From: Escherichia phage vB_EcoM_RZ
Strand: one strand, 5' to 3'
Sequence record: MW598459
Length of the DNA: 64,000 nucleotides
Positions 35,138 to 40,741 of the stretch are shown piece by piece. The notes below the pieces were generated by a model. That model saw only the letters and a list, made by a program, of their open reading frames with translations, searched no databases and was not told where the DNA came from. Each line of letters begins with the position of its first letter. The stretch's first letter is position 1. The position numbers and the translations under genes are program-made.

Positions 35138-35163
35138 AAAGGGACCCGAAGGTCCCTTTTTAT
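35138..35163. terminator. bidirectional intrinsic terminator after gene 54
   Basis: GGGACCCGAAGGTCCC hairpin, A-run before and T-run after. Confidence 0.75.
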
Positions 35164-35450
35164 TTGCGGAATGAAATGAAACCTGCTGCAGTCATTACAG
35201 CTTCTTTCTTAGCAAAGACTGTAATTGCAATTGGTGCTTCAGATTCAAGTTGTCCAGTTACTACACCATTAAAAATATTTTCTGTTTGTTCAGAATTTAC
35301 AAAGTTTTCAACAGGGCGAAGGTCAAACTTCTTATCTTCACCAAATACACGGCGCAATTCATTACCCACCGCGCTGTCAAACTCTTCTGAAGCCGGGATA
35401 ACATTCTCAACTACCAGTTCCTGACCATTAAAGCGAAAAGATGATTTCAT
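35160..35450 (-). CDS. hypothetical protein downstream of alt
   Basis: 96 aa from MKSSFRF; SD GAGGA; first ATG of the longer ORF lies inside the promoter. Confidence 0.5.
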   Translation of the reverse strand: MKSSFRFNGQELVVENVIPASEEFDSAVGNELRRVFGEDKKFDLRPVENFVNSEQTENIFNGVVTGQLESEAPIAITVFAKKEAVMTAAGFISFRK

Positions 35451-35478
35451 TTTGTTTTCCTCATGTGCAATTGATATG

Positions 35479-35509
35479 AACATTGTATCGCACTTCCTTG
35501 TGCTTGTAA
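35479..35509 (-). promoter_or_regulatory. early-type promoter (GTTTACA-N17-TACAAT)
   Basis: reverse complement: GGTTTACAagcacaaggaagtgcgaTACAATg. Confidence 0.5.
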
Positions 35510-35513
35510 ACCC

Positions 35514-37574
35514 CTACGAAAGGAATTTAGGAGGAATAGCTTCCAAATTAATACAACTAGCAAGAATACCAAGACCTTGATTGACTTTCTTCGTTACCCC
35601 AGAGGATGCAAACGATGCAAAGTCAACAGATTCTACTGGCTCTTCTGTTTCCTCGCCCTGATAAACGACAAGCTCACCAGTTTCCATCAACACATCACCA
35701 TCATAGATAACTGCATTTTCATCCAGTTGGTCCGTAGTCTGGATATCAGCTTCCAGCATTTTGACGTTCGCGTTTCCTTGATACGAAGCATCAGTAATTT
35801 TGGTAATCTTAACTACAGTCCCACGAGGAAGAATAACTTCCTGCTCGGACGGGTTGCTTGACAATTCCCCAGGAACAATTACGTTAATTAAGTCCGCCCC
35901 AGAAATTTTCCAACCAACATGCATCATTACGTGGTCGCGGCGTGCATCCGGCATATCTGGTAAAACAATTTCGTCATCAGCCTGGAAAGATGTCCCATCA
36001 CGATAGTCCTGATGAACTGCAGCCATAGCAACGTTCGCCACCCAGCCACCAAAGATAATCGGTTTAAACGACGTTGATACATAGTTCCTGAAATAAAATA
36101 ATTTAGATTTCTTAATTTTATCAAATGTAGGAACGTTTAAATATTGACCACGCCAAAGAGTTGTATTAGGCGGCAACTTATGTCCAATTTCAAAGGCCGA
36201 ATCCAATTCCTTAATTGTTTCGACAACTCTGTCTAGATTTAGGAATTCAGCTTCTTCTTCATAATATTTGCCCATCAAATAATTATTAATATCGACATAG
36301 TTTGCTCCACAATAATCTGCAATTGCTTCTCGCTGACCATAATGGAAACGGTTGTCAGTATACCCTGCTGTGAAATTAAGAGTATTTTCTGATGCTTCTT
36401 CGGCAAAGTCTTTAACTGCAACACGAATGGCGCTTGTGTATTCTTTTTCCCAGAGCGAGGCTGCATAAGTGGCTGCATCCAGGTTAGGAGGAGCATCATT
36501 CATTTTTCTTTCGATAAATGCGGCTTTGCGAAGGTTAAGAATCTCTGCACATGATTCGGCAAAAATCTGCATCTGCTTCATACTGCCAACAGGAGCACGT
36601 TTAAGTTCACGATGCATACGGTTAAAAATTGGGTCAGAGTCTTCAACACGAATTTCTTCTTTCCAAACACCATTTGCTCGCATAGCCTCATCTGCTGCGC
36701 GCATACGAGCCATAGTATTCGTTTCGGAAGGTCGAACAAAAATTTCCAGTTCTTCATAATCATCGATAAGTTCTGCCGTAGCCGGTCGACTAAACTTAGC
36801 AGCTTCTGCATCAATTTCGTCCCAACCGTCTGGTACGGAATCACTTGGAGCGTACTGGGCTTGCGCAATAGCTCGGCGACTGATTTTAGTTTTCTGGGCA
36901 ACAGCAGCATCGGTCTTTTTGTTTGCTGCGTCAATCAGAACTTCGGCTGCGATTTCTTGTTTGGAGACTTGTGCGCCTGTATCTTTATTAGTGAATACAT
37001 CGCCGACTTTAGTTTCAACTTTTTGATATTTCTCAGGGACCGGTGGCATACCATCAACCGAAAGCAGGTCAACACCCTTTTTGTACATAATTACATAAGC
37101 GTTCTTTTTACCGAGGCCAGAAGCATTCGGAAGAACATGATAACGCCCGCTGGTTTTCATTTGAATCAGTCGATTCATAATACGAATAACAGCTTGGTCT
37201 TGTCCTTTCATCTTTTTGGATGGGAAACGGAACAAGACTACATCAGGTTTGCCTAGTTTAATGCTTTCCCAGACTGTAACAAAAATCAGGTTAATTGCAT
37301 CAAGAGGTTTTTCACCTAGACCACCCTTCAGAGGAACAGCATGGCCATGTGAAGTCCCGGAGAGCAGGAATACCTCGGCAATTGCATCACCGCGTTTATA
37401 CTGTTTAACTGTTTCTTTGCCCGTGAATTGCATCAAACGTGCCATAAGAGAATTGGTCCCAGGAACACCGAATTGCCAAACCTGTGGGACCTTGTATTTT
37501 GGATTCATATTAATGACAGGATAACCGAAGGCTTCGATATATTTGTCAAAGAGTTCATTTAATTGTTCAGACAT
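35514..37574 (-). CDS. alt: Alt ADP-ribosyltransferase
   Basis: 686 aa (T4 Alt 682 aa); position between gene 54 and DNA ligase; minus-strand late promoter upstream. Confidence 0.8.
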   Translation of the reverse strand: MSEQLNELFDKYIEAFGYPVINMNPKYKVPQVWQFGVPGTNSLMARLMQFTGKETVKQYKRGDAIAEVFLLSGTSHGHAVPLKGGLGEKPLDAINLIFVTVWESIKLGKPDVVLFRFPSKKMKGQDQAVIRIMNRLIQMKTSGRYHVLPNASGLGKKNAYVIMYKKGVDLLSVDGMPPVPEKYQKVETKVGDVFTNKDTGAQVSKQEIAAEVLIDAANKKTDAAVAQKTKISRRAIAQAQYAPSDSVPDGWDEIDAEAAKFSRPATAELIDDYEELEIFVRPSETNTMARMRAADEAMRANGVWKEEIRVEDSDPIFNRMHRELKRAPVGSMKQMQIFAESCAEILNLRKAAFIERKMNDAPPNLDAATYAASLWEKEYTSAIRVAVKDFAEEASENTLNFTAGYTDNRFHYGQREAIADYCGANYVDINNYLMGKYYEEEAEFLNLDRVVETIKELDSAFEIGHKLPPNTTLWRGQYLNVPTFDKIKKSKLFYFRNYVSTSFKPIIFGGWVANVAMAAVHQDYRDGTSFQADDEIVLPDMPDARRDHVMMHVGWKISGADLINVIVPGELSSNPSEQEVILPRGTVVKITKITDASYQGNANVKMLEADIQTTDQLDENAVIYDGDVLMETGELVVYQGEETEEPVESVDFASFASSGVTKKVNQGLGILASCINLEAIPPKFLS

Positions 37575-37599
37575 AATAGGTTCCTTATAAAATATGATG

Positions 37600-37607
37600 T
37601 ATTTATA
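37600..37607 (-). promoter_or_regulatory. late promoter (TATAAATA on minus) for alt
   Basis: plus-strand TATTTATA 26 nt upstream of alt ATG. Confidence 0.55.
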
Positions 37608-37610
37608 CTA

Positions 37611-37632
37611 AAAAAGGGCCGAAGCCCTTTTG
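37611..37632 (-). terminator. intrinsic terminator after DNA ligase gene
   Basis: GGGCCGAAGCCC hairpin; T-run on the minus strand. Confidence 0.7.
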
Positions 37633-39171
37633 TTATTTTAACCCGGTCTTTGACCAGTCGCCAAATACATCTTCGAATGTGTCTGCATGGTCTTTATCGA
37701 AACGGAACCCTTTGATAATCGGCAGGAACAATGCAACCGTATTATCTTTACGAGTTTCGGAAGTCAACCAACCATTACATTCACAGTCAGCAATCATTCC
37801 AACCAATTCACCTTTACGAGCTTTAACCATTAAGGCTTCACGGTCCATTTCATGACGCTCATCAATCGGAATAGAAACCCATTTTTTGGTTTTCTTATCT
37901 TTAACTTGAGTTGTGTCTTTAAAACCAGAACCACAGTTATTTCTAATCTTACCACAAGAAGAACGAAGCACAACACCGCCAATCTTATTCGGGTCTTTAT
38001 CGTGCTCGTAATATTCAATGATTTCCATTGCAATGTCAATTACTTCTTTGAACTTATACAGGTTCTTTGAGCGCTTGTTTTCCCAAATCGATGCCATGTT
38101 CTTAAGGATAATACCTTCAAGACCTTCATCCACATATTTCTTATAGATAACCTTCGCTTCATCGAGATTGTTAACAACATGGTTTTCAATCAGAATCATG
38201 CGGTCGAAACCATGTAGCACCACGTTATCTGCAATCATCTTTTCCAGAACAGCAAAACGCACATCATATTTCAACGGATTGAGAATCTTAACATCAGAAT
38301 AGACTTCAATCAGTGGAACATAATCCCAAACCTGGAATTTCATGCAAGAAGCTTCTGTTGCAGAAATAGTTCCTTTCAATGATTTGTTTGCCAGACCATT
38401 TGAAAAGGTTCTTGATTCCGCAGTTTCTTGTACAGGGGCAATCTCATCTGAATCGTCAAAAAGGAAGCCCAAACCGTCATTCTGGGGAGCTATTTTCTGT
38501 TCATGATATACTAACTCACCGTCAATCAAAACGCCCTCAGGATGTCTCTCACGCGCTTCACGGGTAGCTTCAATCAATTCCTTTTTAAGGAGGTCAAGCT
38601 TGAGGTATTCGTTGCCAGCTCGGGATAACAATCGAACATCATCCAACTCATCGCCACGAACTTCTGCAAAACACCGAGCGCCGTCGGCTTTCAATTGCGC
38701 AAAGGCCGGGAACTTAATGTTCTTGGCAATACCAGCTTCATCATAGGAAGAAGCGAGCATCTGCGGTTGTTCAGGAATTAAACCTTTCCAAACCTTATTT
38801 GCAATTGATACGGATGCCCCGCATTCCAGGTCACGCATCATCACACGGCGAAGAACTTCAACATCTGCTTTTTTACCATCAGCAATATAGCCAGATAATT
38901 CCTCGATTGCAGCATTACCTGTTAATTTACGAGAGGCTAATGTAAATTCGATAAAGTCAAGCATATCATCAATATTCAACATGCCAAAGCTTTGAGACGT
39001 TGTACCAGGTTTAGGCCATTTCTTAATATAGAACTGGATGCCTTTGGAATATGTCAAACGATACACACGTTTGAGGGTTTCATTGTCAGAATACGATTCC
39101 AGAATAGCTTGTTTCTCTTTAGTGGAATCGGTTGCAGCAATTTCATTTAAAATATCTAAAATCATAATCAC
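37633..39171 (-). CDS. 30: ATP-dependent DNA ligase gp30
   Basis: KADGARCF (KxDG adenylation motif); N-terminus and most of the length match remembered T4 ligase; true start may be the third codon (39165). Confidence 0.9.
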   Translation of the reverse strand: MIMILDILNEIAATDSTKEKQAILESYSDNETLKRVYRLTYSKGIQFYIKKWPKPGTTSQSFGMLNIDDMLDFIEFTLASRKLTGNAAIEELSGYIADGKKADVEVLRRVMMRDLECGASVSIANKVWKGLIPEQPQMLASSYDEAGIAKNIKFPAFAQLKADGARCFAEVRGDELDDVRLLSRAGNEYLKLDLLKKELIEATREARERHPEGVLIDGELVYHEQKIAPQNDGLGFLFDDSDEIAPVQETAESRTFSNGLANKSLKGTISATEASCMKFQVWDYVPLIEVYSDVKILNPLKYDVRFAVLEKMIADNVVLHGFDRMILIENHVVNNLDEAKVIYKKYVDEGLEGIILKNMASIWENKRSKNLYKFKEVIDIAMEIIEYYEHDKDPNKIGGVVLRSSCGKIRNNCGSGFKDTTQVKDKKTKKWVSIPIDERHEMDREALMVKARKGELVGMIADCECNGWLTSETRKDNTVALFLPIIKGFRFDKDHADTFEDVFGDWSKTGLK

Positions 39172-39174
39172 CTC

Positions 39175-39456
39175 TTAGTCGTTGGCTCTATTATATGCCA
39201 CATCTTCCAAAAGCAAATCCAGGCGTTTGTGATAAGTGAACACAAATTTAGTCGACCCATCCGGTTTCATTTTAGTCATGAAGTGAACATAGATAAATCC
39301 TTGCTCAACGCATTCACGCCAAACGGGGTTATCTTTAGCCGGATTAATATCAAACGAGTAATTATGATTCACATGACGAATAAACTGGTTAACATGACCG
39401 TAATCCATCGTGGTAGTTGGACCACGGTCAGAAATAGTATGAACGACAAACATCAA
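39175..39456 (-). CDS. hypothetical protein (30.1-like position)
   Basis: 93-aa ORF, tightly packed after the ligase gene. Confidence 0.5.
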   Translation of the reverse strand: MMFVVHTISDRGPTTTMDYGHVNQFIRHVNHNYSFDINPAKDNPVWRECVEQGFIYVHFMTKMKPDGSTKFVFTYHKRLDLLLEDVAYNRAND

Positions 39457-40277
39457 TTACCCCCTTGGCCACCGGTCGGTTGATTGTACCAGTATTCAAT
39501 ACCAGTACCTACACGCTGGCCATATTGATATGGATATGCTGGATTATATCCAGGAGTCCACGGTTGACCAGGCTGCCAGCCTTGCTGCATTTGTTGTTGA
39601 AGGCGTCGAGTTTCACGAAACAGCTCTTCCAGTTTACGGAGTTCATCTGGAGTGAATTCTGGTTTGACCGGTTCATCTTTGTGTTTCAGTTTAAGCTGTC
39701 CAGCAACATCGTCCCAATTAAAAACTTTGGAAGCTGTTTTAGGAATAGCATCACGTTCGCCGCGGGCCATCCAATAAACCGGAACCTCAAGAATTTCACT
39801 CGCATGGTCGCAATGGTGTGCAAGGTCATCAATATAACAAATGACATTATATTTGTTTTTTGCCTTCTGAAACAAATCCTCTTTAGAGGCTGTATGACCA
39901 CACATCATCACTTCTTTAAACGCTCCAGGGAACAAAGCATTCAGGTTAAATTGACGATTCAAGCGTGCGTCAATGGAATCACCCAGGGCTGTAACAGCCA
40001 CAAAATCATATTGCTCTTTGAGGTTATTAATAACCCTTAATGCATCCGCATAAGGAGACAAATAGCGAATAAAGTCTGAACAGTTATATTTTTCAATTAA
40101 CTGCGCGCCTAACTCTTCATCACAATTGAAAAGTTTACCAGGGGTCACAAATTTTTCATCCTGAATCATCTTAAGGATATGTTCCAGGGGTAAATTATAT
40201 TTTTGGGCGAAATAAGGTAAGCCAGACTGCCATGACAAACATACGCCATCAATATCTGTTAAAATAACGGGTTTCAT
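39453..40277 (-). CDS. HAD-superfamily nucleotidase-like protein with low-complexity C-terminal tail (30.2-like position)
   Basis: N-terminal ILTDIDGV (DxDxV HAD motif I); C-terminal 45 aa rich in Q/P/G/Y. Confidence 0.55.
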   Translation of the reverse strand: MKPVILTDIDGVCLSWQSGLPYFAQKYNLPLEHILKMIQDEKFVTPGKLFNCDEELGAQLIEKYNCSDFIRYLSPYADALRVINNLKEQYDFVAVTALGDSIDARLNRQFNLNALFPGAFKEVMMCGHTASKEDLFQKAKNKYNVICYIDDLAHHCDHASEILEVPVYWMARGERDAIPKTASKVFNWDDVAGQLKLKHKDEPVKPEFTPDELRKLEELFRETRRLQQQMQQGWQPGQPWTPGYNPAYPYQYGQRVGTGIEYWYNQPTGGQGGN

Positions 40278-40741
40278 AATGCATCTCTCAATTGGTTAAG
40301 TATGTCAATAAATTCTTGTTCAGTCAATATTGTATCATGAACAGTAAGGTGGCTCGCCATCGAATGCTTTAAAACTTTGCCTTTTGTAGCTTGTAATGCG
40401 TCGCGGAATCCTTTGTTTTGGAGCGCTGCTTCAAAATATGCATTTGTATACAACTCTTTCCATGCTGCAGAGTATCTTGAAAAGGGAATTCCAAGCCAGA
40501 AAAGCGTCCCACGGTCCGCAGCTCTTGCATAAGCTCTTCCACTTTGCTGGGCGGCCAATCCGGACATCCCAAATATACGTTTTTGTTGTTCATGATTTCT
40601 CACCTTGCACCCTTGTAGGAAACCTTCGAGACCTCCAAACTGGATACCCTCCATAACAAAAGGCCATTTGGCAAAGTTACTTAATGCACATGATGGCCAC
40701 GGGAAATTGCTTCTTATTTCTAACTCAGACATCTTTGACAC
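40274..40741 (-). CDS. YbiA/NADAR-like (DUF1768-like) protein candidate (30.3-like position)
   Basis: ALSNFAKWPF...EGFLQGCK resembles the FSNF...W...EH.FQA.K signature of the YbiA fold; weak, motif-level only. Confidence 0.4.
   Translation of the reverse strand: MSKMSELEIRSNFPWPSCALSNFAKWPFVMEGIQFGGLEGFLQGCKVRNHEQQKRIFGMSGLAAQQSGRAYARAADRGTLFWLGIPFSRYSAAWKELYTNAYFEAALQNKGFRDALQATKGKVLKHSMASHLTVHDTILTEQEFIDILNQLRDAL

Follow-up and report, generated by a model that had tools for sequence, protein, structure and literature searches.

The window, a 64,000-nt stretch of the genome of Escherichia phage vB_EcoM_RZ (MW598459), comes from a T4-like coliphage with ~97% nucleotide identity to TH44, ECML-359, VR20 and SP18. 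It includes the canonical T4-type block alt / 30 / 30.1 / 30.2 / 30.3, with the genes ordered as in T4 (Table 1). The original prediction had recognized four ORFs here, all on the minus strand and encoding 686, 512, 274 and 155 aa; their coordinates proved accurate, as did the strings quoted from them (ILTDIDGV, a 48-residue tail, and ALSNFAKWPF...EGFLQGCK), and their family matches in Pfam/PHROG mark all four as real genes rather than chance ORFs. A fifth gene, 30.1, had been left out between the ligase and HAD genes; its start overlaps the 30.2 stop by 4 nt. The earlier calls of Alt, a DNA ligase and a HAD-fold enzyme were borne out by Pfam/PHROG matches, fold and motifs. Gene 30 occupies the position of T4 gene 30, and its product matched Pfam DNA_ligase_A_M (PF01068, 2.9e-28) and PHROG 114 (6.7e-156). 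By comparison with the N-terminus of T4 gp30, the ligase presumably starts at an ATG two codons into the GTG ORF.

Table 1 Genes, protein regions and regulatory elements at the alt–30.3 locus (window coordinates).
Feature	Position	Strand	Evidence or remarks
Terminator-like hairpin, end of alt late unit	35138-35159	-	9-bp stem AAAGGGACC/GGTCCCTTT, then T-run
DUF5498 ORF downstream of alt, 107 aa	35160-35483	-	Pfam PF17602 2.8e-33; PHROG 1739 8.6e-42
alt, Alt-like RNA polymerase ADP-ribosyltransferase, 686 aa	35514-37574	-	PHROG, Pfam, T4 Alt alignment
T4 late-promoter box TATAAATA	37600-37607	-	25 nt upstream of alt ATG
G+C hairpin AAAAGGGC-TTCG-GCCCTTTT, T/A runs on flanks	37612-37631	.	Terminator just past ligase stop codon
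Gene 30, ATP-dependent DNA ligase, 512-aa ORF from GTG	37633-39171	-	Pfam and PHROG
Gene 30.1, DUF3045, 93 aa	39175-39456	-	Pfam PF11243 2.6e-18; T4 30.1 annotated likewise
Gene 30.2, 274 aa	39453-40277	-	
gp30.2 disordered Q/G/P/Y/W-rich tail, residues 233-274	39456-39581	-	pLDDT 43-63; region highly variable across family
Short linear motif GTGIEYWYNQPT in gp30.2 tail	39474-39509	-	Conserved across 14 tails
gp30.2 predicted linker helix, residues 210-232 (DELRKLEELFRETRRLQQQMQQ)	39582-39650	-	AF2, pLDDT about 86-88
gp30.2 predicted HAD core, residues 1-200	39678-40277	-	Rossmann-like core and four-helix C1 cap
Gene 30.3 (adfN), predicted NADAR-fold DNA ADP-ribosylglycohydrolase, 152 aa	40274-40732	-	Pfam, T4 identity, AF2, PDB
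gp30.3 codon H123 (phage-type)	40364-40366	-	
Alternative-frame ORF inside 30.3, annotated T4 gene 30.3', 74 aa	40369-40593	-	Putative gene
gp30.3 catalytic codon K43	40604-40606	-	
gp30.3 catalytic codon E36	40625-40627	-	

Alt matched PHROG 802 over its full length (3.4e-225) and Pfam ADPrib_exo_Tox (3.6e-19), and could be aligned end to end with T4 Alt at 36% identity, with FYFRNYVSTS (Arg and S-T-S) opposite T4 FYFRNFVSTS and SEQEVILPRG (E-x-E) opposite T4 NEMEVILPRG. Since a terminator hairpin and a TATAAATA box lie between the ligase gene and alt, the latter forms a late transcription unit apart from the 30.x genes. This hairpin was listed on the plus strand by the terminator scan; on the minus strand its stem runs into TTTTTT. 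Between 30 and 64 kb the minus strand carries just three such boxes, this one included, and the whole window holds 19 T4 late-promoter boxes against 4.1 expected. The DUF5498 ORF, in which the family match starts at residue 12, is apparently co-transcribed with alt.

The product of 30.3 matched Pfam Phage_30_3 (PF08010, 4e-64). Its alignment with T4 gp30.3, at 86% identity, moves the start of the 155-aa ORF (40274-40741) from GTG 40741 to ATG 40732. The earlier guess that this protein is a NADAR was right, as judged from profile match, fold and the retention of E36 and K43. Specifically, the family profile matched YbiA (2b3w) at E = 0.016 over a span covering the catalytic segment, some homologues match both PF08010 and PF08719, and the AF2 model (pLDDT 93.9) had the NADARs 2b3w, 8bat and 8bau as its top three and only high-probability PDB matches in Foldseek. 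Within the family, E36 and H123 are invariant and K43 is at least 90% conserved; GGLEGFLQGCK is identical in the window and T4 proteins, and the window C-terminus is full-length. The 30.3' frame is open in both the window and T4, with 61% identity versus 86% for the 30.3 frame.

The NADAR protein is thus real but not new, having already been published from T4 as AdfN, for anti-DarT factor NADAR (Johannesman, Carlson & LeRoux, Nat Commun 2025, PMC11825919; preprint PMC11257639), with its function also reported by Cihlova et al. (Toxins 2024, PMC11125620). AdfN is a NADAR DNA ADP-ribosylglycohydrolase countering the host DarTG1 defence: E36A and K43A each abolish rescue, and the purified protein strips ADP-ribose from DNA, hydrolysing G-ADPr and not T-ADPr (PMC11257639 / PMC11825919; PMC11125620). 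Its shown substrate is guanine-ADP-ribose made on DNA by the host toxin DarT1, not protein Arg-ADP-ribose (same sources).

For gp30.2, PHROG 420 was matched at 1e-78, and searches that included the family profile returned no match among Pfam/NCBIfam HAD models or PDB sequences, so that the HAD assignment rests on fold and motifs. The model is a confident HAD fold in which helices 16-86 follow strand 1 as an insertion, and W16 aligns with the Phe that follows DxDGVLAD in cdN. Among the catalytic residues, D8, D10, K132, D150 and D151 are invariant across the family and T96 is at least 90% conserved. As modelled, the protein belongs to the C1-capped HAD phosphatases, as a divergent member that keeps all four catalytic motifs. 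Because the cap is helical C1, a small phosphorylated substrate would be expected, most likely a (deoxy)nucleoside monophosphate.

The C-terminal tail of gp30.2 had been described as Q/P/G/Y-rich and prion-like. This composition holds in the window, where the last 46 residues include 10 G, 9 Q, 6 P, 6 Y and 3 W, but the abundance of Q is confined to the window's phage group, and what orthologues share is Pro and Trp (11.9% P in orthologous tails vs 4.3% in cores; 4.0% vs 1.1% for W) along with a terminal motif. The label "prion-like" is a statement on composition only. Absence of the tail from orthologues, which the original prediction had taken to count against its reading, is a mixed picture: T4 and many relatives keep a motif-bearing tail, and about half of the family is tail-less.

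Could this tail be low-complexity sequence of no functional consequence, prion-like or simply drifting at a tolerant C-terminus? Its predicted disorder, its absence from 56 of 117 family members and the variability of the remaining sequences, which fall into at least five classes, would all fit; yet we consider neutrality unlikely, given the peptide at the tail end. Its 12-residue consensus, G-x-G-I-E-Y-[WL]-x-x-Q-P-T, persists in 14 tails even though the HAD cores of the lineages concerned share only about 50% identity, with G, E, Y and T invariant and Q and P at least 90% conserved, and the motif is kept across lineages in 18 of the 61 tail-bearing sequences (59 cluster representatives, the window and T4). 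Moreover, an identical GIEYWYNQPT occurs in an unrelated family, in gp042 of Salmonella phage 7-11 and in P0237, two proteins that retain it at 29–40% overall identity, depending on the alignment. The chance probability of this 10-mer is about 9e-15 per position, and synonymous differences are saturated, the third position differing in 7 of the 10 codons between the window and gp042. The peptide most likely docks gp30.2 onto a partner protein, although the motif was not confidently docked in the gp30.2 model itself. A rival reading makes gp30.2 a DNA-end-healing 3'-phosphatase that readies nicks for the neighbouring ligase, with its tail as a tether to the ligase or replisome, much as in PNKP-XRCC1-ligase III. 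This reading, which we hold to be improbable, draws on a weak PHROG match to polynucleotide kinase/phosphatase (E = 0.004), on the same motif in gp042, whose gene overlaps the ligase gene of phage 7-11, and on the position of 30.2 directly upstream of (30.1 and) the ligase gene in the six T4-like genera examined. These include genera where 30.3 has moved: in X20, PEi26 and Aeromonas 31.2, 30.2 and 30.3 lie 55–65 kb apart and 30.2 still immediately precedes 30.1 and the ligase gene.

Such separations also bear on a two-step pathway, in which AdfN would free ADP-ribose from DNA and the HAD phosphatase would detoxify it or a breakdown product, ribose-5-phosphate and phospho-ADP-ribose being candidates. 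The 30.3 stop and 30.2 start overlap by 4 nt, suggesting translational coupling, the two genes adjoin in T4 and Acinetobacter phages, and their distributions are alike (1,509 against 1,437 phage records). However, besides the displaced genes, S16, RL38J1 and Domovoi have a 30.3 homologue with neither 30.2 nor alt within 12 kb, and plasmid-borne T4 AdfN alone suffices to restore RB69 plaques on DarTG1-containing cells (PMC11257639 / PMC11825919; PMC11125620), which makes the pathway quite improbable. The original prediction had gone further in pairing Alt, as a writer of ADP-ribose, with the NADAR protein as its eraser; gp30.3 would then time or limit Alt/ModA/ModB marks by removing them from the host or phage proteins that carry them. 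In the window and in T4, alt and 30.3 are indeed 2.7 kb apart on one strand, each occurs in ~1,200–1,500 of 50,697 phage records, mostly in the same T4-like groups, the N2 of guanine and the guanidino group of arginine should be chemically similar acceptors, and our literature search found no paper directly testing a NADAR on Arg-linked protein ADP-ribose. Nevertheless, the pairing finds no support and such a phage-internal cycle is highly improbable: the terminator and late promoter separate alt from 30.x, Alt is a packaged late protein with the 30.x genes forming a separate unit upstream, fHyAci03, an Acinetobacter T4-like phage, carries alt on the opposite strand, and 30.3 occurs without a nearby alt in S16, RL38J1 and Domovoi. 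The substrate shown for AdfN, too, is guanine-ADP-ribose on DNA; a review ascribes to NADARs a specificity for ADP-ribose linked to guanine on ssDNA, the anti-DarT1 function is demonstrated, and DNA de-ADP-ribosylation fully explains the loss-of-function phenotypes. A side activity of AdfN on the products of Alt is unlikely.

Taken as a whole, we consider it very probable that alt, 30, 30.1, 30.2 and 30.3 are neighbours by inherited gene order with separate jobs, and that the window gp30.3 is an orthologue of AdfN, whose activity was shown for the T4 protein. The identities, folds, catalytic residues, transcription-unit boundaries and conservation patterns established here can be read as follows. 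Alt, expressed late and packaged into the virion as an Arg-type ADP-ribosyltransferase (T4 annotation places it in the capsid), would enter the host with the injected DNA and modify RNA polymerase and other host proteins. gp30 serves as the replicative ATP-dependent DNA ligase. As a NADAR-fold N-glycosidase, gp30.3 would cut ADP-ribose from phage-DNA guanines marked by host DarT1 and so restore replication, acting as an "orphan antitoxin" whose opposed writer is the host's rather than the phage's. gp30.2 would be a HAD phosphomonoesterase that depends on Mg2+, Asp8 acting as the nucleophile and Asp10 as the general acid/base, and its C-terminal ~75 residues form a helix and then a disordered, lineage-variable extension ending in the conserved peptide. 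This peptide is the only new lead, and a modest one, the rest of the block being already known.

Compared with T4 AdfN, the window protein has the same length, genomic position, E36/K43 pair and phage-type last-strand His, and it keeps intact the C-terminal helix that the inactive RB69 allele has lost; it differs in coming from a different genus-level T4-like group and in 22 substitutions, activity being known for the T4 protein. DarG1/BC4488-type NADAR antitoxins and E. coli YbiA (8bat, 8bau, 2b3w; Schuller et al., Mol Cell 2023, PMC11543638) share its fold (Foldseek probability 1.00 each) and the catalytic Glu/Lys pair at 16–17% sequence identity. By contrast, gp30.3 has neither an N-terminal extension nor an adjacent DarT toxin, and its His takes the position of an Asp in DarG1 and a Glu in YbiA. 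T4 Alt (NP_049811), an Arg-specific, head-packaged ARTC-type ADP-ribosyltransferase, resembles the window protein in its full-length collinear alignment, R / S-T-S / E-x-E motifs, late promoter and genomic position, whereas the window alt is only 36% identical, with no alt.1 between alt and the ligase gene and none of the duplicated fragments alt.-1/alt.-2.

T4 gp30.2 (NP_049815, annotated as hypothetical) is 67% identical overall to the window protein, with a near-identical HAD core and the shared tail elements TPG[YF]NP, PYQ and GIEY[WL]YN[QR]PT[GC]G, whereas no alignment is possible over the linker and the tail's first half, and the Q-rich stretch occurs only in the window's group. Mammalian 5'(3')-deoxyribonucleotidases cdN/mdN (2jao, 2i7d, 1q92) and the S. 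epidermidis deoxyribonucleotidase-like 3bwv, the best Foldseek matches to gp30.2, share its DxDGV motif I with an aromatic residue behind it at the equivalent position, its helical C1 cap and its DD motif IV. Finally, the family of 7-11 gp042 (PHROG 38244), encoded directly downstream of an ATP-dependent DNA ligase in Grimontviridae, parallels gp30.2 in carrying GIEYWYNQPT within a Gly/Pro/Trp-rich C-terminal region, in adjoining a DNA ligase gene and in its Enterobacteriaceae hosts; unlike gp30.2, gp042 belongs to an unrelated phage family and combines a helical N-terminus with a CxxC...HxC element in place of any HAD domain.

Across the 5.2-kb region, DNA identity to Escherichia phages TH44, ECML-359, VR20 and SP18 was 96–98%, and the window belongs to a T4-like coliphage. 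The original prediction had named four genes here, for Alt, a DNA ligase, a HAD-type protein and a NADAR-like protein: all four lie on the minus strand where it had placed them, the peptide strings it quoted are exact, and the ORF listing added gene 30.1, a fifth, which separates the ligase and HAD genes. Alt displays a full-length architecture, i.e., PHROG 802 spans residues 1–685, and the R / S-T-S / E-x-E motifs of its ART domain align to those of T4 Alt.

Features of the alt–30.3 block, late-promoter boxes of the window, and the compared gp042 gene of Salmonella phage 7-11
Feature	Position	Strand	Assignment and evidence
alt		minus	Alt-like ADP-ribosyltransferase; PHROG 802 (3e-225), PF03496 (3.6e-19)
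30		minus	ATP-dependent DNA ligase; PF01068 (2.9e-28)
30.1		minus	DUF3045 (profile evidence)
30.2		minus	PHROG 420, unknown function (1e-78)
30.3		minus	Pfam Phage_30_3 (4e-64)
30.3'	40369-40593	minus	74-aa alternative-frame ORF inside 30.3; corresponds to annotated T4 gene 30.3'
alt–ligase gap	37575-37632		58 nt; hairpin terminator and late-promoter box only
DUF5498 / PHROG 1739 ORF	35160-35483	minus	unknown function; directly downstream of alt, before strong terminator 35138-35159
TATAAATA late boxes	28907, 37600, 43349, 61710	minus	
TATAAATA late boxes, fifteen copies	5649-28918	plus	
7-11 gp042	L007:2489-2860		helical N-terminus, CxxC...HxC, then ...GIPWRNPGAGGIEYWYNQPTAIGGQ...

The product of 30.3 is 86% identical to its T4 orthologue across all 152 residues, counted from the ATG at 40732, with an identical catalytic segment (GGLEGFLQGCK) and an intact C-terminal helix, which is lost in the inactive RB69 allele. 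T4 gp30.3 has been renamed AdfN (anti-DarT factor NADAR): the protein is both required and sufficient for T-even resistance to the DarTG1 toxin–antitoxin defence, is inactive as E36A or K43A, and, when purified, strips ADP-ribose off DarT1-modified DNA (PMC11257639, published as PMC11825919). An independent study found that T4 gp30.3 cleaves guanosine-ADP-ribose, not thymidine-ADP-ribose, and that phage NADARs (“gp30.3 proteins”) carry a His in the last strand, as against Glu in YbiA and Asp in DarG1-type/BC4488 NADARs (PMC11125620, PMC11543638). In the window, E36 and K43, the same residues whose Ala mutants are inactive in T4, fall in an E-x-x-x-Q-x-x-K ADP-ribose-binding segment, while H123 comes right after strand 120–122 of the AlphaFold model; E36 and H123 did not vary among 57 homologues, with K43 conserved at 90% or more. 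The AF2 model (pLDDT 93.9) had high-probability PDB matches only to 2b3w, 8bat and 8bau, the three solved NADARs. At the sequence level, phmmer against the PDB returned no match, and E. coli YbiA was reached by the family profile only (E = 0.016, aligned on the catalytic segment). The Pfam NADAR family PF08719 gave no match to gp30.3 at E ≤ 0.1, nor with the threshold relaxed to E ≤ 10, and NCBIfam gave none either, the sister family PF08010 being matched instead; some homologues have precomputed matches to both, and the missing match reflects how the families are partitioned and does not count against NADAR homology. Overall, gp30.3 has the fold and the catalytic Glu and Lys of the NADAR superfamily, and the NADAR guess is borne out by profile search (PF08010), structural matches and catalytic residues (E36, K43, H123). 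Its His is that of the phage gp30.3/AdfN subfamily, and G-ADPr glycohydrolase activity with protection against DarTG1 can be predicted from the T4 orthologue.

Close gp30.3-type NADARs (P0161 and P0219, ~36–40% identical) were also found on large bacterial contigs, e.g., Methylocystis bryophila, 4.5 Mb. Phage genomes are therefore not the only place where the “phage-type” His NADAR occurs, whether the bacterial copies are carried by prophages or are cellular genes. As for 30.3', we make no claim for an extra gene: the frame is open in both the window and T4, yet evolves faster than the main frame, and with only 61% identity, versus 86% for 30.3, it is doubtful as a gene.

Provided that the NADAR assignment held, the original prediction had proposed an ADP-ribose writer paired with a putative eraser in this neighbourhood. 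A module following DarT–DarG-like operon logic would be co-transcribed and linked across genomes; for alt and 30.3, the evidence speaks against both. The 58 nt from the ligase stop to the alt ATG read AAAAGGGCTTCGGCCCTTTTTTAG-TATAAATA-...AAGGAA...ATG, i.e., a hairpin and T-run, followed by a late-promoter box of T4 type and a ribosome-binding site. The window holds 19 copies of this box where 4.1 would be expected, with fifteen plus-strand copies between 5.6 and 29 kb, hence a late structural-gene block there, and only three copies on the minus strand beyond 30 kb. Since a terminator and a late box precede alt, alt and the DUF5498 ORF constitute their own late unit, ending at the terminator downstream, in which the latter appears to be co-transcribed late with alt, while genes 30.8 to 30 form a separate upstream unit. 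The T4 annotation of Alt as a packaged head protein fits such a separate late unit. Gene order elsewhere points the same way: alt of Acinetobacter phage fHyAci03 lies on the opposite strand among baseplate genes, and the 12 kb around the 30.3 homologue contain neither alt nor ligase nor 30.2 in three phages, S16 (Salmonella), RL38J1 (Rhizobium) and Domovoi (Brevundimonas).

The biochemistry is likewise at odds with a phage pair of Alt and gp30.3, which we regard as very improbable. The substrate demonstrated for AdfN is guanine-ADP-ribose on DNA (PMC11825919, PMC11125620), produced by host DarT1, so that the writer opposed is the host toxin; Alt modifies protein Arg. A side activity of the NADAR on Arg-linked ADP-ribose is unlikely, although our literature search turned up no study in which a NADAR had been assayed on protein ADP-ribose linked through Arg. 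What the eraser opposes is a toxin of the host, and a writer/eraser pair should therefore not be deduced from Alt and a NADAR being close together in the genome; this negative result is the useful part. In S16, the 30.3 homologue gp73 (L004:12424-12975) has been relocated to the tRNA region; the 183-aa ORF that comes after it is unannotated and showed no resemblance to gp30.2 in tblastn.

The HAD assignment of gp30.2 in the original prediction proved correct, as did the NADAR assignment of gp30.3, from motifs, models and homologue conservation. HAD motifs were scored as I DxD, II T/S, III K/R, and IV DD or DxxxD: in 65 sequences, D8, D10, K132, D150 and D151 were invariant and T96 was at least 90% conserved, covering all four. 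The model core (pLDDT > 90) is predicted as Rossmann-like, with a four-helix insertion (residues 16–86) directly after strand 1, which makes gp30.2 a C1-capped HAD; core and cap together correspond to the HAD fold. The best Foldseek match was the cytosolic 5'(3')-deoxyribonucleotidase 2jao (2.2e-8), and mdN and 3bwv, a deoxyribonucleotidase-like protein, scored nearly as well. This same 2jao provided the sole sequence-level hint, a weak one (E = 0.29), in which DIDGVCLSW aligned with DMDGVLADF of cdN and the invariant W16 fell on a cdN Phe that presumably stacks on the base. No Pfam or NCBIfam HAD model matched gp30.2 (Pfam searched to E ≤ 10), and the 65-sequence family profile had no match among PDB sequences. 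On predicted structure and motifs, we assign gp30.2 as a Mg2+-dependent small-molecule phosphatase, the second Asp of the DxD motif arguing for a phosphatase rather than a dehalogenase; a nucleotide is the substrate that we favour, more than the fold by itself can decide.

A coupling of gp30.2 to AdfN was suggested by the overlap between the stop of 30.3 and the start of 30.2. In Serratia phage X20, Edwardsiella phage PEi26 and Aeromonas phage 31.2, the two genes are 55–65 kb apart, with 30.2 kept directly upstream of 30.1 and ligase or of ligase alone; 30.2 has the same place directly upstream in the window, as it does in T4 and in the Acinetobacter phage. The conserved linkage of 30.2 is to ligase, the gene to which it stays attached, and gp30.2 is present in ~1,400 phage genomes. 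Our literature search found no paper containing “gp30.2”, and only the AdfN paper as a T4 study covering both 30.2 and 30.3. The most distant gp30.2-like HAD (33% identical), from the KVP40-like Vibrio phage TCU-VP03-AIR1 (L042:3001-3573), adjoins a divergently transcribed nicotinamide phosphoribosyltransferase gene and two radical-SAM genes, not ligase. Such neighbours might point to a role of the HAD clade in NAD metabolism or nucleotide salvage; the homologue was set aside as possibly non-orthologous.

Beyond the HAD core, the gp30.2 model ends in a helix (210–232) followed by predicted disorder. The tail stretch in the window comprises only 46 residues, with nine Q and three N, and the T4 tail is not Q-rich; by composition, there is no long conserved Q/N-rich stretch as in a prion-like domain. 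Common to the tails are instead an excess of Pro and Trp, with Q enriched less consistently, and a fixed motif, so that the label “prion-like” is not apt. The presence of a tail in orthologues held only in part: T4 and others have one with the motif, while 56 of 117 family sequences have none and the others fall into at least five classes. G-x-E-Y-..-Q-P-T occurred in 18 of the 117; in 14 motif-bearing tails, taken from lineages with ~50% identity between cores, there was no variation at the W, P, G, E, Y and T positions and hardly any at Q-P. Between T4 and the window, the cores are near-identical and the linkers unalignable, with TPG[YF]NP, PYQ and GIEY[WL]YN[QR]PT[GC]G common to the tail ends. 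The tail is thus better described as a predicted disordered extension bearing a conserved short linear motif than as a generic prion-like sequence.

An exhaustive profile search with the tail alone as query led to P0237, encoded on a metagenomic contig of 1.1 kb: this 152-aa protein is not a HAD, holds GTGIEYWYNQPT exactly, and is related to gp042 of Salmonella phage 7-11 and its kin (Grimontviridae, PHROG 38244). The other of the two profile hits, P0238, is a low-complexity repeat protein (ANANVNAS...GVNYLLNDPN) and spurious, and the sole match of a word-indexed search with the tail-only alignment, P0236, is a split-off C-terminal fragment of a T4-type gp30.2. In a degenerate-DNA scan of IMG/VR, the exact 10-mer occurred only in the window’s phage group and in 7-11-like phages; a relaxed scan added only other gp30.2 genes and chance matches, i.e., ~15 GIEYxxxQPT matches inside unrelated globular ORFs or crossing stop codons. 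One of these, GIEYEFPQPT, sits in a 313-aa ORF that is presumably methyltransferase-like. Locus L012, considered as a third context of the motif, is another 7-11-like fragment. Within the core, 7 of 30 nucleotides distinguish the window from 7-11, all at third-codon positions; the peptide has therefore been maintained at the protein level, not recently transferred. The chance probability of the 10-mer is ~9e-15 per position.

In all five annotated Grimontviridae genomes examined (L007 and L035-L038), the gp042-family gene is immediately downstream of an ATP-dependent DNA ligase gene, overlapping it in four and abutting it in PKM.Hi.22.6. The latter lacks the motif, A24 and ECO319P1 have a degenerate form, and the 7-11 branch carries it; the GIEYWYNQPT tail is thus found in some branches only, a lineage variability that mirrors that of gp30.2. 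Since two unrelated, ligase-adjacent proteins of enterobacterial phages end in the same peptide, we tentatively read the end of the gp30.2 tail as a portable docking peptide, W...P...G-x-G-I-E-Y-[WL]-x-x-Q-P-T, for a shared partner, a possibility that we hold to be the less probable outcome. Enterobacteriaceae phages would then have attached the peptide to at least two unrelated proteins, gp30.2 and gp042 of 7-11-like Grimontviridae, and it would recruit both to one partner, which might be the ligase or else a replication/repair protein of the host. If true, this would be a new short linear motif in phage DNA metabolism. A ligase-linked gp30.2 whose tail peptide recurs in an unrelated protein offers an entry point to two families of unknown function.

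Taken together, most of these findings were already known: the fold, catalytic residues and anti-DarTG1 role of AdfN were published in 2023–2025, and the rest is a textbook T4 block. The ligase ORF as listed has a GTG start (MIMILDIL..., window 39165-39171); the T4 gp30 N-terminus (MILKILNEI) suggests that translation begins instead at an ATG two codons further in. Unlike the HAD protein gp30.2, gp042 is a zinc-ribbon-like small protein, the two being unrelated and both ligase-adjacent. The T4 reference has the same gene order as the window (alt, alt.1, 30, 30.1, 30.2, 30.3, 30.3', 30.4 and onward), except that the window has no counterpart of the duplicated fragments alt.-1/alt.-2 and only a terminator and late box where T4 encodes alt.1 (62 aa). 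At that position, PEi26 has an annotated alt.1 and X20 a similar-sized unnamed ORF, while the window ligase itself is ~25 residues longer than that of T4, via internal insertions.
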